From assembly GCA_963785235.1 (NCBI GenBank), contig CAWAUM010000007.1:32001-96000 (forward strand): DNA of 64,000 bases, written 5' to 3'. How positions within the stretch are numbered: position 1 is the stretch's first letter; every line of letters begins with the position of its first letter. The position numbers and the translations under genes were made by a program. The notes under the pieces were generated by a model, which did not search any database, was not told the DNA's origin, and saw only the letters and a program-made list of their open reading frames with translations. Shown here in pieces: positions 14,114 through 26,204 of the stretch. Source of the stretch: an uncultured delta proteobacterium. GTDB taxonomy: Bacteria; Desulfobacterota; Desulfomonilia; UBA1062.

Positions 14114-14770
14114 TCACTTATTCTCACCCCAGTGGACAGCATATCGTACGAGTTCTGCAGAATTCTTTAACTGAAGTTTTTCTTTGATTCTCTCACGGTA
14201 TGTGCTGATAGTGCTTACGCTCAGGTTCATTTCATCGGCAATATCACTGGTTGACATTCCTTTTCCGATCCTTCTCAATACCTCAAGCTCCCGGTCGGAA
14301 AGGTTCTCAACAGGTGACTTCTCAAAAGTATCCTGGCCTGTCCTCACCCTGTTCAGGAGATTGCCCATGATGCTCTCGCTGACATAGATGTTACCCTGTA
14401 AAATATGTCGAATGGCTTTTACAATGGATTTTGAGGTCTCCTGCTTCATGATATAGCCTTGTGCTCCGGCCTGAAGAGATCGTTCGGCGTAGAGGAGCTC
14501 GTCGTGCATGGACAGAACAAGTACCTTCATATTCTTATGAAAGGTGCTGATCTCTTTGATGAGATCCATGCCGTTACTCCTTTTCAAGGTGATATCTATA
14601 ATGACCAAATCAGGATGGAATTCTTTTATGAGGGTCCTGGCTATGTCTACATCTTCCGCCTCGCCACACACGGTAAGATCATGTTCATGGTTGATCAATT
14701 CTTTGATTCCAAGCCGGAAAATTTCATGATCTTCTACAATTAATATCTTAACCATCTTTGAGCTGTTCAT
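14114..14770 (-). CDS. NarL/LuxR-family response regulator
   Basis: ILIVEDH, DITL, LSMH and GYIMK receiver motifs; LSDRELEVL...TYRERIKEKL HTH. Confidence 0.93.
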   Translation of the reverse strand: MNSSKMVKILIVEDHEIFRLGIKELINHEHDLTVCGEAEDVDIARTLIKEFHPDLVIIDITLKRSNGMDLIKEISTFHKNMKVLVLSMHDELLYAERSLQAGAQGYIMKQETSKSIVKAIRHILQGNIYVSESIMGNLLNRVRTGQDTFEKSPVENLSDRELEVLRRIGKGMSTSDIADEMNLSVSTISTYRERIKEKLQLKNSAELVRYAVHWGENK

Positions 14771-14775
14771 ATCAT

Positions 14776-16641
14776 TTATTTCCAAATACTCGTTTCATTA
14801 TGTCCATCATACTTGAAAGATAAAGTTACTTTGGTTCCTTTGTTCTGATGGCTGGATATTCTTAAATCCGCGCCTATCACATTTGCCCGGAAATTCATAA
14901 TCTTGAGACCCATACCCTGTGGGTCCTCATGGTTTTGTATTCCTCTACCATTATCTTCGGTGGTCAGGGTCACCATATTATTTTCATACAATAAATCAAT
15001 AGTAATTCTATCTGCCTTCCCATGCCTGATTGCATTATAAATGGCTTCATGGACTATATAGTATATATGGGTACATATGGATATGTCATCGATTAAGATG
15101 GATCGCTGATAATGGAACCTGCAGGTAATCCCATGTACCTCGTGTATGTTTGATGCCATTTCCTGCAACAGTGACTCAAGCCCGTGGTCAGCAAGGAAGA
15201 CCGGGCATAATCCTCTGGAGAGTCTCCTTGTTTTTTGAATGGCCTGTTCGATCAGGCTCCTGATCTTTTCAACTTCACCGGTTGAAGGAACGCTGTTTTC
15301 CTGGAGCTTTTTTTTCAACAACTCGCTCATGACTTCAATGCCTATGAGATGTGGTGCGAGGTCGTCATGCAGGTCCTGGCCGATTTTCTGCCGCTCCCTT
15401 TCACCAATAATCAGGATCTCCTTTTCCAAGGTCTTTTTTTCAGTGACATCTTCTATGGTGGCTATCATGCACAGCTCATCGGCGAGCATGATCATCTCGG
15501 CTGATATTGTGACCATCCTGATTTCTCCGGTGCTGGTGTAGAATTCTGTTTCATATCCACGGACCTGTCCTTGACCCTGAAGGGTTTGGACTATGCGGTG
15601 ATAATCAGAGATTGTATTGAAGAGGCCTATTTCTTTAAGTGACCTCCCGAGAACTGAATCTCTTGAAAAACCGCATATCTTGAAAAAACTTTCATTAACA
15701 TTGAGAAAGCAGCCATCGAGCACTCTCCATATTACAATTCCTACAGGGCTTGATCTGAAGGCCTTTGAGAACATCTCTTCTGAGTTTCGTAAAGAGTGGG
15801 CCAGGATATTCACCGATTGACTGATGACACCGATTTCTCCCTTGGCCAACAATGGTATAGGCTCTACGATCAGATTACCCTTTTCGAGTTCTTCCAGGGT
15901 ATCCAAAGTCATTCTTAATCCTGACTGTATACCTGCATTCGATTCATGCACGGTTACAAAGATGGCAGCCAGCGAAAGGGCCAGGATAATAAAAACATTA
16001 ATGGAGAGGTCACTAAGACTGATGGCCTGGAGATGGGATATGAATAAAAAATGACCAAGGGTGATCAGTGGGATGATAAGAACGGAGATAACGATGAGTG
16101 TAGTCCTGGAAGAGACACTGAATAGGGTATATGAGTCCCGGGGGAGGTGTACGCCTTTGATGCGATCATCCATGAGGACAGGCGAAAGGAGATGTTCAGT
16201 AGTGCAATAGGATATAATGCTGTTTATGGGTATACACAGAAGCAGGATAAAGAATACCGGCAATGTCTCAAACCATGTAATACCAACCGATGACTGTAGA
16301 ATTGCATATTGGCATGCAAGGCCGAGGACCCATCGAAGAGCAATGACAATGCTCTCGGTTGTGGGGTAGGAGAGAAGATCAAGCTTGATCGTTGCATAGT
16401 CTTCTGTCCCCCTATTAAGGGCATTCAAGATTCCGGTAAGCTTCCAGATCCGGATGGACATGCCGAAGAGTGTTGCAAGGGTTGCTGAGATTATAGCAGT
16501 ATAGATAACATATAATAATTTTTCCCCCTGAAACATCCCTGCTATTGTTCCGTAATATAAAGCCAAAGGAACAACAATGAGATTAATGTATAGTTCGAGT
16601 CGTAAGGTGAGTTTTGTAATTAATCCTTTTGTAGAAATCAT
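14776..16641 (-). CDS. Membrane sensor histidine kinase (multi-TM, HAMP-like, PAS, HisKA_3, HATPase)
   Basis: ERQKIGQDLHDDL, EAIYNAIRHG, DNGRG and GMGL motifs; PAS region FRSSPVGI...NVNESF. Confidence 0.92.
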   Translation of the reverse strand: MISTKGLITKLTLRLELYINLIVVPLALYYGTIAGMFQGEKLLYVIYTAIISATLATLFGMSIRIWKLTGILNALNRGTEDYATIKLDLLSYPTTESIVIALRWVLGLACQYAILQSSVGITWFETLPVFFILLLCIPINSIISYCTTEHLLSPVLMDDRIKGVHLPRDSYTLFSVSSRTTLIVISVLIIPLITLGHFLFISHLQAISLSDLSINVFIILALSLAAIFVTVHESNAGIQSGLRMTLDTLEELEKGNLIVEPIPLLAKGEIGVISQSVNILAHSLRNSEEMFSKAFRSSPVGIVIWRVLDGCFLNVNESFFKICGFSRDSVLGRSLKEIGLFNTISDYHRIVQTLQGQGQVRGYETEFYTSTGEIRMVTISAEMIMLADELCMIATIEDVTEKKTLEKEILIIGERERQKIGQDLHDDLAPHLIGIEVMSELLKKKLQENSVPSTGEVEKIRSLIEQAIQKTRRLSRGLCPVFLADHGLESLLQEMASNIHEVHGITCRFHYQRSILIDDISICTHIYYIVHEAIYNAIRHGKADRITIDLLYENNMVTLTTEDNGRGIQNHEDPQGMGLKIMNFRANVIGADLRISSHQNKGTKVTLSFKYDGHNETSIWK

Positions 16642-17161
16642 ATATTGTTATGGGCGCCTTTACGCCGGCATAGAATATTGATCAGCCCCATACAAACCTG
16701 GTTGATATTTTCATAGCAGAGCCAATTGCAAAAGTCCAAGATTGTCATTTCCGAGAAAGCTTCGAACCCAGTCTTTTCAAGAACTTCTGGCCCCACGCTT
16801 TCGCTGGGGTGACACCTTTTAAAGTTTTGCAATTGGCTCAGCAGTTTAATCTTTGCTTGGTAAACCATTATGATTTTTTGATTATCCAGGAAAAGCTTTT
16901 CTTCGTATAGTGGAAAAAAAATTCACATAACTAAATATTATCCACTAGCATAAATATTCATAACTGATTGAAATAACTAGTTACGATAAAACAACTACTA
17001 GACAACACCTGATAATCGACTGAGGGTAGTTTCGTAATTTATTTGCCCAATCTTGGCACGTTTCGTGAGTATCATTGGGTCATGATCAATATCCCTGAAT
17101 GGAAAAAACAACAACCGGTAAGTTGGTATTTTTCTCCGGATTTCATGAAAGGAAGGGAATA

Positions 17162-18769
17162 ATGCGAAATACAACGACAGAACCAAGGCTTGTGTCTATC
17201 AGCAGGATATCGGAACCAAAGAATCATATTTCGATATCTCCTATCATCTTGAAGAAGATCTATTCCATTGGAAGCCTGAAGAATGTCGAAGACGGAGTAT
17301 CATTCACTATTAAAAACCCTATGAAAGATGGTTTGATTACAGGTATTTCAGGTATTTGCATCAATGGCCTCGAAATCCCTTTGGATAATGTGGTCATGAG
17401 AAACAACGGAACACGTCTCAAGGCCAGCGAGATAAATCCTGACCAGCCGTTACCTTTCCCTATGGGCATGGATGTTGAGTTTCATGCACGGGCTATAGCC
17501 CTTGCGAAGAACATCGAACACCAGATCACCATATCCTGCCATACTGATCCATATGGTTCTTTTGATCTTGAAGCAACAGACGCAGTTATCGAAACGAGAT
17601 CAACCCAGAAGAAGATACCCTGTGACAAACAGGCCAACTACGACATGGACATTGTCAGAGCGCGACAGGATTTTGTTGAAGAATTCACTGGTGTTCACCT
17701 GCACCATGTAAAGCACCATTCATTTGACCCTCTTGTTACGAAGGGCAATATTGAGAACTTCAGTGGCGTGGCGCAGGTCCCACTGGGATTTGCCGGACCG
17801 TTGAAGGTCAATGGAGAGCATGCCAAGGGAGAATTCCTCATCCCCCTGTGCACAAGCGAAGGGACATTGGTGGCATCTTATAACAGGGGCATGAAAATCA
17901 TCAACATGTGCGGGGGTATAACCACTACAGTTATGGAAGACCGCATGCAGAGGGCCCCGGCTTTTGCATTTGAATCAGCACGGCAGGCCAGGGACTTCGT
18001 GGCATGGCTTGATGACCATATGGATGAGATCAGAGAACAGGCTGAGTCCGGCTCCAGGGTAGCAAAGCTCATCAGTATAGAGAGATATATGGCCAGCAAA
18101 TTCGTATATCTTCGCTTCAATTATTTTACCGGGGATGCAGCTGGGCAGAATATGGTGAGTATGGCCACTTTTACGGCTTGCAGCTGGATACTATCCCAGG
18201 TGAATAATATCAGTCATTTCTACATGGAATCTAACTTCGCCACTGATAAGAAAGCCTCAATGATCAACACCTTGAACACACGTGGGAAGAGGGTTGTGGC
18301 GGAGATCGTCATCCCCAGGGATGTCATGATACAAAATATGAGAGTAGACCCTGAGACATTGGATCATCTGTGCAGGGTATCAAATCTTGGATCCTTTATT
18401 GCTGGATGCTCAGGCAATGGGCTCCATTCGGCCAATGCATTGGCTGCACTGTTCATAGCCACAGGCCAGGATGTAGCAAACATATCAGAGTCATCCACTG
18501 GATTAATTTTTACTGAAATAACTCCAGAAGGCGATCTTTATGCCTCACTGACCCTCCCATCGTTGATTGTTGCAACCTACGGGGGAGGAACTGCACTTCC
18601 TACGCAGAAAGAATGCCTGGATACCCTTGGATGCTATGGCCAGGGAAAGGTCTTAAAGTTTGCAGAGATCGTTGCAGCAGTAGCAATGGCAGGTGAGATA
18701 TCTCTCGCCGGTGCTCTCTCGTCACTGGATTGGGTTACGAGCCATGAGCGTTTCGGGAAAAATCGCTAG
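17162..18769 (+). CDS. Class I HMG-CoA reductase with an extra N-terminal domain
   Basis: NIENFSG, TSEGTLVAS, TGDAAGQNM, TDKK, RGK, ATGQD, YGGGT, AGEIS and C-terminal SH motifs. Confidence 0.9.
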   Translation: MRNTTTEPRLVSISRISEPKNHISISPIILKKIYSIGSLKNVEDGVSFTIKNPMKDGLITGISGICINGLEIPLDNVVMRNNGTRLKASEINPDQPLPFPMGMDVEFHARAIALAKNIEHQITISCHTDPYGSFDLEATDAVIETRSTQKKIPCDKQANYDMDIVRARQDFVEEFTGVHLHHVKHHSFDPLVTKGNIENFSGVAQVPLGFAGPLKVNGEHAKGEFLIPLCTSEGTLVASYNRGMKIINMCGGITTTVMEDRMQRAPAFAFESARQARDFVAWLDDHMDEIREQAESGSRVAKLISIERYMASKFVYLRFNYFTGDAAGQNMVSMATFTACSWILSQVNNISHFYMESNFATDKKASMINTLNTRGKRVVAEIVIPRDVMIQNMRVDPETLDHLCRVSNLGSFIAGCSGNGLHSANALAALFIATGQDVANISESSTGLIFTEITPEGDLYASLTLPSLIVATYGGGTALPTQKECLDTLGCYGQGKVLKFAEIVAAVAMAGEISLAGALSSLDWVTSHERFGKNR

Positions 18770-18804
18770 GACATAAACGGATAACAGAAAAGGAGAGCTG
18801 AAAT

Positions 18805-19872
18805 ATGAGTACCATGGCGCAGGCAAAACCACTCGTAAGTAGTCCAAGGGAATTCTTCCCAGCCAAGGTTATCTCCATAGATGATTACAGACCCGGAACC
18901 CATGCAGGGATCAATGTCTTCACATTTGATGAGAGGATCTCCTATCTCAGAAAATACGGTGATCACTGCCTGTCATTTTCAATGCTGCAACCGGAAATGC
19001 ACTTTTTCGATATGCCCGGGGTCGGATTCATCACCTTCAGGAAGAAATGGGGTACCCGGTTCGTCCTTGCCGACCCTGTCTGTGATGTGAAAGATAGGGA
19101 ACTCCTCATCCGGGAGTTTCTCAAGGACAAGACAAACACGGCTTTTATCCAGATCTCTCAGGGTATGGCAGAATTTCTTCACGAAAAGTTCGGGTATTAC
19201 GCGACTCAGTTTGGTGTCGAATCAATCGTTGATCTTGAGAAATGGGATCTCAAGGGCAAGAAGAAACAGGTACTGAGGACATCGGTAAATCATGCTAAAA
19301 ATGAGGGTGTGACGATAGAGGAAAACAGTTCAGAAGATGGGTGCCGCCAGCTCACCAAGGAATGGCTCAAGACCCGCAAGGTCAGAAATCGCGAGGTCGT
19401 TTTTCTCATCCGTCCCATGGACCAGGAATACCAGGAAGGTACAAGAAAATTCTGTGCGTATCATGATGGAAAACTCGTTGGTTTTATCTTCTTCGATCCG
19501 CTCTATAAGGACGGCAAGGTAGTCAGCTATGTGCCCAACATCTCCCGTTTCAGCAACGATTTCAAACAGGGAATCTTTTATCCCCTCATGTGCCATGCCA
19601 TGGAAGTCTTCAAGAAAGAGGGTGTGAAGTATTTGCACCTCGGCCTGTGCCCGGCGGTTGTGGATGAGAAGGATGAGTCCTACGAGTCAAAGCTCCTGAA
19701 AATGATTGTCCGATTGCTCTATAAGTTTGGGAACATGATATACAGCTTCAAGGGATTATACTTCACCAAATCCAGGTTTGAGGGTGTAGAGCAAAAGACA
19801 TTCTGTGCACACCGAGAAATTCTGCCCTCGAAGTCCATGCTCACGGTGTTCATGATTTCCAATATTCTATAG
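18805..19872 (+). CDS. Stand-alone soluble DUF2156 / LPG-synthase C-terminal (aminoacyl-tRNA-dependent transferase) domain protein
   Basis: VLADPV, LKGKKKQVLRTSVN, YLHLGLCP, YSFKGLYFTKSRF motifs; no transmembrane segments; AAGGAG RBS. Confidence 0.8.
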   Translation: MSTMAQAKPLVSSPREFFPAKVISIDDYRPGTHAGINVFTFDERISYLRKYGDHCLSFSMLQPEMHFFDMPGVGFITFRKKWGTRFVLADPVCDVKDRELLIREFLKDKTNTAFIQISQGMAEFLHEKFGYYATQFGVESIVDLEKWDLKGKKKQVLRTSVNHAKNEGVTIEENSSEDGCRQLTKEWLKTRKVRNREVVFLIRPMDQEYQEGTRKFCAYHDGKLVGFIFFDPLYKDGKVVSYVPNISRFSNDFKQGIFYPLMCHAMEVFKKEGVKYLHLGLCPAVVDEKDESYESKLLKMIVRLLYKFGNMIYSFKGLYFTKSRFEGVEQKTFCAHREILPSKSMLTVFMISNIL

Positions 19873-19893
19873 TTTGTTTTCTTAAGGAAATAT

Positions 19894-19921
19894 CGGGCTG
19901 CAGGCGATGTGCCTCAGCCCG
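19894..19921. terminator. Hairpin between convergent DUF2156 and HAD genes
   Basis: CGGGCTG-CAGGC...GCCT-CAGCCCG followed by TATTTATTTT. Confidence 0.55.
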
Positions 19922-19953
19922 TATTTATTTTGAGGCTCATGCTCATTGATTGA

Positions 19954-20625
19954 TTAGAAAGCTGATTCTCTTTTGAAATCCAGGATATTCCAGTTTTTTC
20001 GCAGTGCCTCCTGTCTTAGTCTTCTATCGGGATTTGTTGCAAACGGAAGACCTACTTCATGCAACAGTTCAATATCATAGAATGAATCCGTGTAGAAATA
20101 ACTTTGTACAAGGTCGACCCCGTGGCCTTTTGCCCAGGATAGTGCATAGTCCCTTTTCCCTTTTCCATAGCAAAGAGGTTTGATGAGTTTTCCTGTTAGG
20201 ACGTCGTCTCGTATCTCCACCTGGGATGTGATGATTTCACCTATGCCGAGTGCATCAGCCAGTGGCCTTACAAAAAAAGGCGGTGAGTTTGAGATGACCA
20301 CCAGGCGGTGTCCTTTTGATTGATGATCATGGATACGTTCATGTGCTTCTTTATAGATGCATTTTCTGATCATTGTCTCAAACCATGCCTTTGAGAATTT
20401 ATCCATGTCCGAAAGGCTCAATCCTGCCAGGAGTTCCATGTTTCGCTCATACCATTTATCTATGTTGAGTAGAGACATCCGGTAGAGTCCGATTTTCAGA
20501 ACCCCCAAAAGGAGAAAACCTAAAGGGACTATGCCTTGTTTATAGGCGAACTGCACTGAAGAAAGCCCTGCGTTCTTCCAGGTGATCGTGTGGTCCATAT
20601 CGAATAAAGCTGCTATCTGGCTCAT
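19954..20625 (-). CDS. HAD-IB (SerB-like) hydrolase
   Basis: FDMDHT, CYGKGK, YTDSFYD and NPD motifs. Confidence 0.88.
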   Translation of the reverse strand: MSQIAALFDMDHTITWKNAGLSSVQFAYKQGIVPLGFLLLGVLKIGLYRMSLLNIDKWYERNMELLAGLSLSDMDKFSKAWFETMIRKCIYKEAHERIHDHQSKGHRLVVISNSPPFFVRPLADALGIGEIITSQVEIRDDVLTGKLIKPLCYGKGKRDYALSWAKGHGVDLVQSYFYTDSFYDIELLHEVGLPFATNPDRRLRQEALRKNWNILDFKRESAF

Positions 20626-21981: not shown

Positions 21982-22206
21982 TCACATCACCTTCATCTGA
22001 TAAGAATATATTTTGCTCATCCTGAAGATAGTTCCTTCAGGGTATATACCTTGGACTGTATATTTACAGCATGATTAAGGCTTTGTCCATTTTATGATAA
22101 TGGTGTTTTATCAGACAGCCCCGGTTTGAATCTTTACACGTTCAAGGACTTCGTATTATATGAAGCCCACCTGTTTTCAATAATAAGTATTTTTGAGGCC
22201 ACCTGT

Positions 22207-22743
22207 ATGAGTCAGAGAAGACCTTCATGGGACGAATATTTCATGATGCTTGCAAAGCTTGCAGCCTCCCGTTCCACGTGCCTTTCACGGCCTACCGGTG
22301 CTGTGGTGGTAAAGGACAAGCAGGTGGTTACAACAGGCTACAATGGTTCTCTGCCGGGACAATCCCATTGCATGGATGACGGGATATGTTTTCGGAGGTC
22401 GCTCAAGTGGCCTGAGGCCATGAAGTATGACATGTGCAGATCTGCCCATGCAGAGGCCAATGCCGTCTCTCTGGCAGCAAAGAAGGGGGTAAGCCTCGAA
22501 GGGGCAACCATATATTGCACGCTCGAACCGTGTATAACGTGCTCTAAGCTCATCGTGATGTCAGGTATCACTAGGGTTGTGTATGAGCACTCCTACGATT
22601 CACCCATCCCGGAGCGTGATCAGTATTGGAAGGATGTGCTCGCATTGAGCCGAACATCGGTCGAACAACTCATCATTCATGATGAAACAATGAAGTATGC
22701 AATGCAATTCATGAGTGGTGATACATCAAAGAGGAGGCTTTAG
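22207..22743 (+). CDS. dCMP deaminase (ComEB family)
   Basis: RPSWDEYFM, RSTC, TGYNG, HAEANA and PCITC motifs. Confidence 0.92.
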   Translation: MSQRRPSWDEYFMMLAKLAASRSTCLSRPTGAVVVKDKQVVTTGYNGSLPGQSHCMDDGICFRRSLKWPEAMKYDMCRSAHAEANAVSLAAKKGVSLEGATIYCTLEPCITCSKLIVMSGITRVVYEHSYDSPIPERDQYWKDVLALSRTSVEQLIIHDETMKYAMQFMSGDTSKRRL

Positions 22744-23328
22744 ATGGTATTGGGTGCTGACAGGATCATTCAGATGGTCTGCCAGGGGGTTGAGGTGGAA
22801 GACCATATCACGGGGAAGAATGTTATGAAACCTCTTGTGGAATTTCTCGGCTCAGACCAGATTGACGGTATTGAGGGAACAACCGTGGACTTGCGCCTGG
22901 GTGCGATATACAAACCCGTGGGCAAGGCATGTCTCATGAGAGACAGCCGGGTCACTCCCGAGATTGACAGGATCATGGATATAACCGACACACCCGATGG
23001 GGTGTTCACGATCAAGCCTGGTGATTATCTGCTTTTTCAGACCATTGAGCAGGTCAATCTGCCAGCGAATCTTTTTGCATATATAAGACCGCGCACCACC
23101 CTGATTCGTTCCGGCATACCCCTGGAAACGGCCTTTGTATCCCCCAATTACCAGGGCAGGCTTACCGTGGGCATGAAGCATCAGGGACTCATGGATGTGG
23201 AGATACAGATGGGTTTCCGTATCTTGTGCATCGCATTTTTTCCCATTGAGGGCAATGCAGTGCCATACAGGGGAGTATGGCAGGGTGACAGGGTTTCAAC
23301 CAATGGCAAGGAGGAGAGACCATTTTGA
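22744..23328 (+). CDS. dCTP deaminase/dUTPase superfamily protein with atypical active-site motifs
   Basis: VDLRLG, TIEQVNLP, RTTLIRSG, SPNYQG and YRGVWQG motifs. Confidence 0.75.
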   Translation: MVLGADRIIQMVCQGVEVEDHITGKNVMKPLVEFLGSDQIDGIEGTTVDLRLGAIYKPVGKACLMRDSRVTPEIDRIMDITDTPDGVFTIKPGDYLLFQTIEQVNLPANLFAYIRPRTTLIRSGIPLETAFVSPNYQGRLTVGMKHQGLMDVEIQMGFRILCIAFFPIEGNAVPYRGVWQGDRVSTNGKEERPF

Positions 23329-24056
23329 AGTACTTTAATCGTGAAATGGAGCATATAGAAAAGTGGGGACACATCAGGCAGGGCCTGTTCAGGAACGAGG
23401 AACCCCTGGTTAAGCTTATCGGGGTTACCACCCCCGTAGAAGAAATGACCTCCCAGGATGTAACCATTGAGACTTTGCCGGCCTATACTGCCAGGCAGAG
23501 CCATGAATCGGAAGGTACCCATGAGGACGACCTGCGGCTCAACAAAAAGCTTATCTCCTGGGGCCACCAGACCTGCCTGGAGGCAGTACAGTTTGTGTAC
23601 TATGTGACAGGGGTGTCCAAATCACTGGCCGGCCAGTGGACACGTCATAGGATCGGCATCGGGTGGACCTTCCGATCAACAAGATATGTAAAGGCCAATA
23701 AGAATATGTTCATCTACCCGGCACTGGAATATATCGATTCAGAAGACCAGGTGAAGTCTATTTATCAAGCGTATGAAAAGGAACACAGACATTCCATGGA
23801 TGTCTATGAAGAGCTCCAGAAGCTTGGGGTGCGCAACCAGGAACTGAGAAGGCTCATGCCTGTGGGGTGGTCCACATCGGCATATGTCTATGTCAATGCC
23901 AGGTCATTACGGCATTTCTTCGAGCTTCGCTTGGAAAAGTCTGCCGAATGGGAGATCAGACGTCTGGCATATCTCATGTTCAATGACGTCATGGCAATAG
24001 CCCCTACCTTGTTTGAAGACCTCATCAAAGAAGAAACAGGTTCTTCTGATAAATAG
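23325..24056 (+). CDS. thyX: FAD-dependent thymidylate synthase
   Basis: GHQTCLE, RHR-X8-S-TRY, NARSLRHFFELR and AEWEIR motifs. Confidence 0.9.
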   Translation: MKYFNREMEHIEKWGHIRQGLFRNEEPLVKLIGVTTPVEEMTSQDVTIETLPAYTARQSHESEGTHEDDLRLNKKLISWGHQTCLEAVQFVYYVTGVSKSLAGQWTRHRIGIGWTFRSTRYVKANKNMFIYPALEYIDSEDQVKSIYQAYEKEHRHSMDVYEELQKLGVRNQELRRLMPVGWSTSAYVYVNARSLRHFFELRLEKSAEWEIRRLAYLMFNDVMAIAPTLFEDLIKEETGSSDK

Positions 24057-24090
24057 TCCGACTGAGCCGCCGGGAAAGGGATAGAGATGG

Positions 24091-24846
24091 ATGAAAGGAA
24101 AATGCGAGCCGAATAAGGATGAGACGTTCGATCTCTTATCGTGTTGCAACCTGTCCATCCTCCAGAAGAAAAAAGGTTACCGGTATTCGCTAGATTCATA
24201 TCTTCTCGGGGCCTTTGTAGATGAGGCACCAGGAACAGAGGTCATCGAGATAGGGTCAGGGTCCGGTGTGGTGTCTATCCTGCTTTCAGCAGTGAAGGGT
24301 CTTCATGTAACCGGCATAGAGATACAGGAAGACCTGGCTGAGATGTCAAAAAGATCCATTGAGCACTCCGGCCTGTCGGATAAGATCAGGATAACCTGCT
24401 GTGATATAAAGGATTATTCCGGACCCAAGGTTGATGTAGTTGTTGCGAATCCCCCATACAGACCCCTTTCCACCGGTAGGATAAACCCGGACAGGTCAAA
24501 GGCAATAGCCAGGCATGAGATCTCTCTGGATCTTGATTTGTTGCTCAAGAAGACGTATGGAATCCTGCGGCCGCTTGGAAGATTATACATCGTGTATCCG
24601 GCATGGAGAGTACCGGATCTCCTGGTTGCCATGCGGAACAGACGGATCGAGCCGAAACAAATGAAGTGTGTGTATACATCCCCGGTAAGGACATGCGAGA
24701 TCTGCCTTGTATGCGGGGTAAAGGGCGGCGGCAAGGAGTTCATCATCGAGAGTCCTCTGATTGTCTATAATCAAGACAACACATACCACCATGACATGGA
24801 GATGGTATTCCAGAGTCTTACCTTACCGAAAAAGCCATTGACCTGA
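24091..24846 (+). CDS. tRNA1(Val) adenine(37)-N6-methyltransferase family
   Basis: GYRYSLDS, EIGSGSG, NPPY and ARHE motifs. Confidence 0.85.
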   Translation: MKGKCEPNKDETFDLLSCCNLSILQKKKGYRYSLDSYLLGAFVDEAPGTEVIEIGSGSGVVSILLSAVKGLHVTGIEIQEDLAEMSKRSIEHSGLSDKIRITCCDIKDYSGPKVDVVVANPPYRPLSTGRINPDRSKAIARHEISLDLDLLLKKTYGILRPLGRLYIVYPAWRVPDLLVAMRNRRIEPKQMKCVYTSPVRTCEICLVCGVKGGGKEFIIESPLIVYNQDNTYHHDMEMVFQSLTLPKKPLT

Positions 24847-24902: not shown

Positions 24903-26204
24903 ATGAGAGTCGAGATTACTGATGTTGGCGGCACAAAAAGGCAGATGAAGGTGGTTGTCCCTAAAGAGGAAGTGACCACGGTCACGCAGGAGATCTACCA
25001 GGAGATTGCCCAGGGTGTTGCCATAAAAGGATTCAGGAAAGGGAAGGCGCCCAAGCACATTATCAAGATGTACTACCAGGAATACATTAACAATGAGCTC
25101 TCCCGCAAGCTTGTAAGGGAAAAATTCGAAGAGGCAGCGAAAGAACAGAATATCTTTGTCGTGTCGGTCCCTGAGTTTGAGAATGAACCGCCGAAGGAGA
25201 ATGAAGAGTTTGAATTCTCTGCAAAGTTTGATGTGAAACCCGAAGTAGTACCCCAGGTGTATACCGGGTTTGAGTTGAAAAAGCCGAAAGTTGCAGTGGA
25301 AGATAAGAATATTGATGACGTCATTACGAGGTTGTTGGAAACCTATGCCACGGTTAAGGATGTGGACGACGCTGATTTTGAAGTAAAGAATGGTGATTAT
25401 GCCATTGTTAACATTACCTGCGAGGAAAACGATAAGTTGAACCGGGATAAGATCACGGTTGAAGCGGGTGTTCGCAGTGCCTTCCCAGGGCTTGAGAATG
25501 AGGTGTTGGGGCTTAAGACCGGTGATACGAAAGAGGTAAATATAACCTTCCCTGAAACCCATTTTCTGGAGGATATGAGGGGTAAGCAGGCCTTGCTCAG
25601 AATTCAGGTCCAGGGGATAAAGCAAAAGGAGATGCCGGTATTTGATGACGAGTTCGCCAAGATGGTGCATAAGGATGTAACAAACGTGGACGATCTCAGG
25701 AAGGCCATTGAGAAGGATCTTATAGAGCGACTTGAAGCTGATTCCAGAACATACATTGAGAAACAGCTTTCAGACAAGCTCATGGAGGAAAACCAGTTCG
25801 ATGTTCCTGAGTCAATGGTCAGGTTCCAGGCCATGATGATGCTCCAGGGAATATCCCAGAGGCTTTCATCCCAGGGTGTTAAGTTGCAGGATGTCTATCC
25901 TGATGGCGAAGCCCTCAGGGAAGAGACCATGTCATCCGCAGAGAAGCTTGTGAAGACCACATTGCTCATCGAGGCTATAGCCAAAGCAAATGCCATTGAG
26001 GCAACCGATGAAGATGTGGATAAAGAAATTGCATCATTGGCCGAAAAATACAGTATGACCCCTGATGCAGTTCGAAAGAGCTTCGAAGAGAGGGGAAGTC
26101 TCGAGGAGATGAGATTCGGCATACTGGAGCGCAAAGTGTATGACTATATAATAACAAATTCAACCATCGTAGAGGTGGATAGCATTGAGGAGAAGACCGC
26201 ATGA
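24903..26204 (+). CDS. tig: Trigger factor
   Basis: GFRKGKAP motif; precedes clpP-clpX-lon. Confidence 0.95.

Follow-up and report, generated by a model that had tools for sequence, protein, structure and literature searches.

Why should a gene with the fold of hydroxymethylglutaryl-coenzyme A (HMG-CoA) reductase directly precede a gene for a soluble aminoacyl-tRNA transferase homolog in a bacterial genome, and does the reductase make mevalonate? This arrangement occupies positions 17162 to 19872 of a 64,000-nucleotide (nt) stretch of an uncultured delta proteobacterium (Desulfobacterota; Desulfomonilia; UBA1062; assembly GCA_963785235.1, contig CAWAUM010000007.1, positions 32,001 to 96,000), referred to as the window in its whole length. 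An earlier note on this DNA had proposed that the HMG-CoA reductase (HMGR) makes mevalonate or an analogous alcohol, or feeds an isoprenoid lipid, that this product is aminoacylated from tRNA by the DUF2156 protein encoded next to it, and that an adjacent two-component system controls the pair. Comparison of loci across genomes displayed the pair as a recurrent, conserved unit and not a chance neighborhood, and the analogous-alcohol version of the proposal gained support together with a non-mevalonate role, while mevalonate, the isoprenoid lipid and the two-component control were not supported. The pairing of DUF2156 with an HMG-CoA reductase was not found described in the literature, supplements aside. 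The pair was organized as follows, in agreement with the 35-nt gap and the terminator hairpin reported earlier.

17162..18769, + strand: gene for the putative HMGR-fold thioester reductase, 535 amino acids (aa), with an N-terminal beta-sandwich and a class-I-type catalytic domain with a predicted altered HMG pocket
17246..17587, + strand: N-terminal accessory domain of the reductase (aa 29-142; PF25653 HMG-CoA_red_N, 81 bits)
17654..18757, + strand: catalytic HMG-CoA_red domain (aa 165-532; PF00368, 410.9 bits against a cut-off of 27)
18770..18804, + strand: intergenic spacer of 35 nt, with the ribosome-binding site AAAGGAGAG ahead of the DUF2156 ATG
18805..19872, + strand: gene for the stand-alone DUF2156 (LPG_synthase_C) aminoacyl-tRNA transferase homolog, 355 aa, without membrane domain
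19880..19935, + strand: terminator-like hairpin with a U-rich 3' side (RNA fold of -28 kcal/mol)

The reductase-DUF2156 pairing recurred across families. A scan with one genome per species yielded 215 relatives of the DUF2156 protein, the best 80 of which gave 78 loci with 82 DUF2156 copies. An HMGR-like gene abutted DUF2156 on the same strand for 51 of these 82 copies, either ahead of it (37) or behind it (14), and two loci harbored a tandem DUF-HMGR-DUF-HMGR arrangement. Spacers between the aligned ends of the two genes were mostly 19-150 nt in the other loci. Neither an HMGR-like gene nor the alternative reductase described below was adjacent to 14 of the 82 copies, of which six lay less than 1.7 kb from a contig end, three belonged to Marinobacter and one was 504 nt away from an HMGR-like gene. 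Closer to the window, strong DUF2156 orthologs (E <=1e-118) were present in 13 of the 14 further genomes of its genus, in 2 of 10 genomes from the other genera of the family and in none of the 16 genomes of the sister family. Each of 11 loci fetched from relatives had the reductase gene abutting DUF2156 in the same orientation. On contig C5, the window's genome itself had another HMGR-like/DUF2156 pair (71% and 64% identity to the first, genes 42 nt apart), and the two genes now lie apart in one genome (JAHDOV01, G024). A candidate fusion of both proteins (937-aa open reading frame, locus L055) was rejected as an artefact of open reading frame calling, the two tblastn matches being in different frames. 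In another genome of the genus, a DUF2156 ortholog was split over three matches that included a TGA and a TAG codon (G004:C8:57118-58177), possibly a broken copy or an assembly error.

The reductase kept the whole catalytic machinery of class I HMGR. The closest solved relative of its catalytic domain was the Methanothermococcus HMGR (6hr7, E 1.5e-93), and the motifs named in the earlier note (EG, DKK, GQD and a terminal H) were all found, as TSEG (E233), TDKK (K363), TGQD (D437) and TSHE (H528). These four residues align to human E559, K691, D767 and H866 and were unchanged in 46 of 46 aligned reductases (the window reductase and 45 from DUF2156-ortholog loci, open reading frames no shorter than 500 aa). 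Alignment with the human, Arabidopsis and Methanothermococcus enzymes displayed that the DKK cis-loop was also retained, together with the residues equivalent to R590, S565 and N755.

The substrate pocket displayed a different pattern. The available part of PMC9500038 gives roles to human K735, which forms a salt bridge with the HMG carboxylate, and to S684. In the window reductase, the K735 position is occupied by S407 and the S684 position by E356. Across the 46 reductases, the K735 position held Ala (19), Ser (9), Cys (9), Gly (8) or Thr (1) and the S684 position held Asp (30) or Glu (16), while the DAMGMN motif was changed into an invariant DAAGQN. As both contacts were replaced in 46 of 46 sequences, the end of the pocket that would hold the HMG carboxylate is predicted to have lost a cation and gained an anion. 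The fold and the catalytic residues are thus common to class I HMGR (6HR7; human HMGCR, 1DQ8), whereas the window reductase differs by the extra N-terminal beta-sandwich, the replaced K735 and S684 positions and DAAGQN. It also scored below the TIGR00533 equivalog cut-off (364.6 against 441.8 bits), and no 19-residue hydrophobic segment of membrane-helix type was present in its sequence.

The genome context was in line with this pocket. The window's genome (3.9 Mb, 13 contigs, 93% complete) was searched for the HMG-CoA synthase C domain (PF08540) and for mevalonate kinase (TIGR00549), both missing from the window according to the earlier note, and neither was found in the whole genome. Two genes of the methylerythritol phosphate (MEP) pathway were present, Dxr (421.9 bits, over the cut-off) and LytB/IspH. 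Because the HMG contacts are replaced, the TIGR00533 cut-off is missed, mevalonate genes were not found and Dxr and IspH are present, the window reductase, judged from its sequence, is not a mevalonate enzyme and stands outside any mevalonate pathway. Nothing was found pointing to an isoprenoid link of the pair either. Ordinary biology would instead have a true HMGR, serving a dispersed mevalonate route or the degradation of mevalonate or HMG, lying by chance beside a soluble aminoacyl-phosphatidylglycerol synthase; the intact catalytic tetrad and the close archaeal relative 6hr7 agree with it, but the rebuilt pocket, the missed equivalog cut-off, the gene content of the genome, the recurrence of the pair across families and its duplication in the window's genome render this explanation very improbable. 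Homologs of the reductase are currently annotated as 'hydroxymethylglutaryl-CoA reductase (NADPH)', a name that would wrongly imply mevalonate metabolism in MEP-pathway hosts.

The reductase slot beside DUF2156 was occupied by different enzymes in different lineages. A 436-aa NAD_binding_4 protein followed 17 of the 82 DUF2156 copies. Its best NCBIfam match was the thioester-reductase domain TIGR01746, of the type found in nonribosomal peptide synthetases (NRPS), and it also matched a short-chain dehydrogenase/reductase (SDR) model, alpha-aminoadipate reductase and MxcG, all far under cut-offs; identity to a classical fatty acyl-CoA reductase (FAR) was 22% across 179 residues. A tblastn search with an SDR-type query did not find this reductase in the window's genome, and another genome (G430) held both the HMGR-type and the SDR-type pairs. 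When metagenomes were scanned with more distant DUF2156 proteins as seeds, 200 relatives were obtained, the best 80 loci of which were examined (81 DUF2156 copies). Classical FARs (NAD_binding_4 plus Sterile domains, 512-556 aa) were encoded beside the DUF2156 gene and an associated methyltransferase gene in 5 of these 80 marine loci. The FAR gene was divergent in three of them (L126, L163, L169); in L145 one gene intervened, and in L178 it lay on the same strand immediately downstream. Maqu_2220 and Maqu_2507 are FARs of Marinobacter.

With HMGR-like, SDR-type and FAR proteins found in one slot, three unrelated thioester-to-alcohol enzymes share it. FARs and the terminal reductase (R) domains of NRPS and carboxylic acid reductases (TIGR01746) perform the same overall conversion of a thioester into an aldehyde or alcohol and take the same place near DUF2156 orthologs in other lineages, but with a Rossmann SDR fold unrelated to the HMGR fold. 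In a maximum-likelihood tree of 77 DUF2156 proteins, partner type tracked the clades, and none of 200 label shuffles required as few changes. The SDR-partnered clade contained 17 rows and one more at a contig end (support 100/99), next to an HMGR-partnered group of 56 rows and a long-branched Marinobacter clade.

The altered pocket was also found in the wider HMGR-fold family of the phylum. PF00368 was detected in 28 of 401 sampled genomes, with 24 over the cut-off. Among 19 PF00368 loci viewed, nine were left out as too divergent (L189, L191, L192, L195, L196, L198-L201), and the ten others all encoded DAAGQN or DASGQN with a small residue at the K735 position, along with Asp or Glu at the S684 position in nine (Ser in L183). 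Forms lacking the N-terminal domain (about 390-407 aa) had as neighbors an epimerase-type SDR, a PlsC-type acyltransferase, an LPG_synthase_TM protein or an ICMT/PEMT methyltransferase. Two reductases of this family were fused to a C-terminal APH/EcKL/choline-kinase-like domain (L205:5323-7758, 812 aa; L206:5729-8437, 903 aa). By analogy, these kinase-fused sisters suggest that, in the HMGR-fold family, the following enzyme acts on the hydroxyl of the product as its handle. Together with the three unrelated reductase types in the slot, they favor the analogous alcohol of the earlier proposal. A profile search did not find a DUF2156 ortholog in five of these wider-family genomes (61-100% complete).

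Other arrangements were observed around these sister genes. In L204 (3180-4142 and 7416-9706) and L203 (2985-6574), an HMGR-like gene without the N-terminal domain was followed by epimerase-type SDR and PlsC-type acyltransferase genes, and genes for a stand-alone LPG_synthase_TM protein (the MprF flippase-type domain) and a DegT aminotransferase lay upstream, which is possibly another lipid-modification cassette. The kinase-fused gene of L205 neighbored an MMPL/sterol-sensing-domain transporter gene, and that of L206 neighbored genes for a phosphoenolpyruvate-utilising enzyme, a UbiA prenyltransferase and a phosphatidylserine decarboxylase.

Outside translation, tRNA-dependent aminoacylation is directed to phosphatidylglycerol (PG), a few other glycerolipids, fungal ergosterol and a few natural products. 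ErdS is reportedly a fungal DUF2156 aminoacyl transferase, and VlmA is presumably the DUF2156-type tRNA-dependent enzyme of valanimycin synthesis. The window protein carried the LPG_synthase_C domain (PF09924) over aa 48-335 (184.8 bits against a cut-off of 27.5), and a profile of 25 orthologs matched the lysyl-phosphatidylglycerol synthase (L-PGS) of B. licheniformis (4v36, E 2.6e-24) as well as MprF synthase domains. Its structural model (pLDDT 78.7) displayed a tandem GNAT fold similar to 4v36, 4v35, 5vrv, 6lv0 and 7duw (TM 0.69-0.78), with E 4.6e-21 and TM 0.69/0.75 against 4v36; FemX and the aminoacyl-tRNA-dependent peptide synthase Sbb17 were among the lower-ranked fold matches. A basic helix, GKKKQxxR, aligned with GKKRAGLR of L-PGS 4v36, and G151, K152, K154, Q155 and R158 were invariant in the 25 sequences. 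The excerpted text of PMC6103681 presents a positively charged helix binding the tRNA acceptor stem as a feature common to these transferases, and the helix of the window protein is predicted to bind tRNA in the same way.

Unlike MprF, the window protein appeared soluble, as the earlier note had it. No membrane segment was found in it (Kyte-Doolittle maximum of 0.96), and the bifunctional MprF model NF033480 gave 101.9 bits against a cut-off of 600, covering model positions 549-814 only. In a library clustered at 50% identity with no length limit, 230 clusters matched at E <=1e-30; the top 20 matches were all 218-376 aa long, with no full-length fused form among them, so that the DUF2156 protein truly stands alone. 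No reductase fusion was found among 15 longer, distant DUF2156 relatives, three of which (P0180, P0234, P0261) were fused at either end to an alpha/beta-hydrolase (S33/S9-like), and these are read as a pairing of synthase and hydrolase within one polypeptide. A complex prediction for the HMGR-like and DUF2156 proteins, both given as alignments, scored 0.00 against a mark of 0.32.

The canonical bifunctional MprF was encoded separately in the same genome, by an MprF-like gene on another contig (C10:52561-53439, within an open frame of about 855 aa) whose identity to the stand-alone DUF2156 was about 22-24%; similar genes were present in several relatives. The synthase domains of MprF and other aminoacyl-PG synthases (4V36; P. 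aeruginosa alanyl-PG synthase, 4V34/4V35; Rhizobium MprF, 7DUW) share PF09924 with the window protein at about 20% identity, along with the basic helix and a C-terminal YxFKGLxxxKxxF-type motif, but the window DUF2156 has no flippase or membrane domain and its partner is a thioester reductase and/or a methyltransferase. A freestanding DUF2156 protein also exists in fungi: ErgS forms ergosteryl-3beta-O-glycine (PMC8913301, in the part available). As far as that part goes, ErgS and ErdS resemble the proposed reaction in that an aminoacyl-tRNA made by a separate synthetase esterifies an alcohol that is not a glycerophospholipid, ErgS being freestanding and soluble, and they differ from the window protein, which is bacterial and linked to a reductase and a methyltransferase instead of a hydrolase. 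A sterol context was not apparent in any examined locus, with no search for sterol genes made in the genome.

A dedicated aminoacyl-tRNA synthetase was considered and rejected. Five Desulfobacteraceae/Desulfococcaceae loci had a methionyl-tRNA synthetase (MetRS) gene directly upstream of the module, ahead of the order methyltransferase-DUF2156-HMGR in L067 (2920-4875) and at the same position in L069, L074, L075 and L081, and it came after holB and a PSP1-domain gene there. This MetRS was the sole strong match in each of four genomes checked and is therefore the housekeeping copy, giving no evidence for methionine as donor. In L063, L067, L068 and L086, the module was followed by genes for PfaD-like and PfaA-like synthases of polyketides or polyunsaturated fatty acids.

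A third conserved member of the module, absent from the earlier note, is a SAM (S-adenosylmethionine) methyltransferase that is encoded elsewhere in the window's genome. This protein of about 215 aa (Methyltransf_25/11; best NCBIfam match CpaM, under the cut-off) was encoded no more than 2.3 kb away from 39 of the 82 DUF2156 copies and directly upstream of DUF2156 in 74 of the 80 marine metagenome loci. Most of these 74 had a Marinobacter-like order, with kinase, GGDEF/EAL regulator, methyltransferase, DUF2156, racemase-family gene, NUDIX gene and plsB, and the methyltransferase-DUF2156 core was present in a cultured Marinobacter (L090). In the window's genome, the methyltransferase gene lay away from the pair, on contig C5 (133765-134415), directly downstream of a PlsB-type acyltransferase gene, and its product shared 79-81% identity with the methyltransferases flanking HMGR-DUF pairs in L037, L040, L047 and L048. 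PlsB-type acyltransferase genes were found both beside this methyltransferase gene and near the pair in Marinobacter-like loci, a lipid context that speaks for the module described below. A second methyltransferase copy (C5:108353-108995) was matched by tblastn in two pieces (query 5-86 and 92-218) in different frames and is probably a frameshifted pseudogene.

The linkage of reductase and transferase was kept where the gene order was inverted, where the genes were duplicated (in tandem or dispersed) and where non-homologous enzymes of the same chemistry took the place of the reductase, which argues for one pathway. In the order that we infer, the HMGR-fold enzyme would first reduce a non-HMG acyl-CoA or acyl thioester to a primary alcohol, as could be expected from a four-electron reduction machinery kept whole around a rebuilt HMG pocket. 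The soluble DUF2156 would then move an amino acid from aminoacyl-tRNA to that hydroxyl, giving an O-aminoacyl ester, and the methyltransferase would modify the product, most plausibly by N-methylation of the amino group. What results might be a lipid or head group, cationic and betaine-like, that serves to remodel the envelope. This single pathway, from a non-mevalonate primary alcohol through its esterification by DUF2156 to a product modified by the methyltransferase, is held with moderate confidence, the chances standing about level.

A fuller version is put forward tentatively, as a serious possibility that falls a little short of an even chance. It holds that a previously undescribed tRNA-dependent pathway, distributed over Desulfobacterota and marine Gammaproteobacteria, converts alcohols supplied by the reductase into methylated O-aminoacyl esters, that the alcohol-forming step was recruited at least three times from unrelated folds, and that the HMGR fold was rebuilt for a non-HMG, possibly ammonium-bearing acyl-CoA, the products being new cationic betaine-like lipids or head groups. 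In betaine-lipid synthesis, BtaA links a lipid alcohol to a group derived from an amino acid, and BtaB N-methylates that group. The likeness to the module is one of logic only (attachment, then a small SAM methyltransferase), with no homology; the donor of BtaA is SAM and the bond it makes is an ether, whereas the module would use aminoacyl-tRNA and is proposed to form an ester.

Several observations weigh against a single pathway. No HMGR-like or SDR-type reductase was adjacent to 76 of the 81 metagenome DUF2156 copies, and the Marinobacter pelagius genome gave neither a PF00368 match nor a match to the SDR-type reductase. With the reductase absent near so many DUF2156 genes, the transferase can use an acceptor that needs no dedicated reductase. 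The counts themselves are not independent samples, as many of the loci came from related metagenome-assembled genomes and only the best 78-80 of the 215 and of the 200 relatives were counted. The invariant acidic residue of the pocket suggests a polar or cationic substrate over a plain fatty acyl one and would fit poorly with the FAR-type partners. The sequence of the reactions cannot be read from that of the genes. Lastly, the fold relatives FemX and Sbb17 form amides, which makes an amine acceptor possible.

The Marinobacter-like loci, most of them without an adjacent reductase, are also what would be expected from parallel envelope remodelling, where DUF2156 aminoacylates PG, diacylglycerol or a glycolipid, the methyltransferase methylates the head group, and the reductases separately supply the fatty alcohols or aldehydes that enter wax esters or ether lipids, all genes being merely co-regulated. 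The PlsB, PgpA and glycosyltransferase genes nearby fit such remodelling, and so do the known DUF2156 enzymes, which act on membrane lipids (PMC8913301 and PMC6103681, in the portions available). Co-regulation alone accounts poorly for the tight same-strand pairing retained through inversion, tandem duplication and non-homologous replacement, and for the partner type tracking the DUF2156 clades, and PG aminoacylation already has its candidate in the full-length MprF-like gene of the genome. This explanation is considered unlikely, though it deserves some weight.

The steps of the pathway could also run in reverse order. DUF2156 would then aminoacylate a thiol (CoA or a carrier) or build an aminoacylated acyl thioester, the reductase would convert it into an amino aldehyde or alcohol, and N-methylation would give a choline-like or osmolyte-like molecule. 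The charge reversal of the pocket (Asp/Glu at the S684 position, K735 lost) suits a substrate that bears an ammonium group, the weak matches of the SDR-type partner to TIGR01746, alpha-aminoadipate reductase and MxcG liken it to NRPS R domains, which reduce thioesters of amino acids, and the kinase domains on the sister reductases include choline/ethanolamine-kinase-like models. We know of no DUF2156 enzyme that acylates a thiol, however, FAR-type partners use fatty acyl-CoA, and the reductase-free methyltransferase-DUF2156 pair of Marinobacter-like genomes would be purposeless, which makes the reverse order distinctly improbable.

If the single pathway leading from alcohol to ester is true, a module of transferase, alcohol-forming reductase and methyltransferase would add a new class of acceptor to tRNA-dependent aminoacylation. 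Wetland and sediment sulfate reducers, as well as marine bacteria, would then probably make membrane or osmolyte molecules of a new family. The module likewise offers a clear, testable case of the HMG-CoA reductase fold acting on a substrate other than HMG-CoA. The Marinobacter cultures harboring the methyltransferase-DUF2156 core (L090) make the question accessible at the bench.

The N-terminal domain of the reductase was modeled as a beta-sandwich (pLDDT >90 over about aa 35-140), with 8qvc_B and 7bvr_B as top Foldseek matches (E 2e-7 to 6e-6, TM 0.55-0.72); in this model, it resembles the beta subunit of C-glycoside deglycosidases. PF25653 was detected in 7 of the 401 genomes, which were sampled evenly across the phylum, and in three of these seven it was fused to a URO-D-like domain, with no DUF2156 ortholog found there. 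As PF25653 is joined in those cases to a URO-D-like domain instead of HMGR, the Pfam name HMG-CoA_red_N is misleading, and PF25653 was rejected as a marker of the module. The URO-D-like (TIM-barrel) fusions with PF25653 were observed in other families of the phylum (L095:7889-9475, L096:1959-3503, L097:561-2069), and gave a weak match to the C-glycoside deglycosidase beta-subunit family (CGDB).

The first ATG of the reductase open reading frame is at 17099; the ATG at 17162 is preceded by the ribosome-binding site GGAAGGGAA, and a start there gives 535 aa, the typical length among the homologs. The hairpin at 19880-19935 (z -4.49) was not equalled in stability by any of 200 shuffles, and it was absent from the list of a simple terminator scan because its stem is bulged. 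Four short contigs, 90-95% alike to the window, were recovered from one wetland metatranscriptome, and one of them, originating from a relative, covered 18652-18892, i.e., the junction of reductase and DUF2156. Coming from a relative, and with DNA carry-over possible, this contig is a weak hint of co-transcription. Two probable DNA runs also gave short contigs with 90-95% likeness. The genes bordering the pair were the following.

14114..16641, - strand: divergent two-component system, a neighbor and not a conserved part of the module
14776-16641, - strand: sensor kinase of that system, with PAS, HisKA_3 and HATPase domains
14114-14785, - strand: NarL/LuxR-type regulator of that system, assigned by domain matches
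19954..20625, - strand: HAD-IB hydrolase gene, convergent with the pair (PF12710, TIGR01490)

The membrane kinase and the NarL-type regulator were as previously described, the kinase displaying about six hydrophobic segments within its N-terminal 240 aa in addition to its domains. Their proposed control of the pair was not borne out as a general feature, as a related kinase gene lay upstream in only 3 of the 78 loci (L015, L017, L039) and a 93%-identical locus (L016) had an aldehyde oxidoreductase gene in the place of the kinase. The leader between the kinase and HMGR-like genes is 520 nt long. It contains an 18-nt inverted repeat (16716-16842; GCAGAGCCAATTGCAAAA / TTTTGCAATTGGCTCAGC, 94% complementary, arms 91 nt apart), possibly a small repeat element or the site of a regulator. 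A sigma-70 promoter scan gave three sites against 6.1 expected. An Rfam search of the leader and operon returned a single chance-level miRNA-like match (E 0.69), at the inverted repeat, and the same search of 12 related loci gave no match at gathering score, so that neither a riboswitch nor a T-box hints at the ligand or the amino acid.

The HAD-IB hydrolase (cluster 3) was present in 21 of the 78 loci, and its adjacency to the pair was restricted to the locus type labelled Desulfomonilia/Syntrophaceae, which shared descent may explain. Further along the window, a co-directional cluster at 22126-24846 encoded a dCMP/cytidine deaminase, a dCTP-deaminase-like protein, ThyX and a methyltransferase, and was followed by the trigger factor gene (24903-26204). 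This cluster was syntenic with the pair across many Desulfomonilia-type loci and looks like ordinary nucleotide metabolism.

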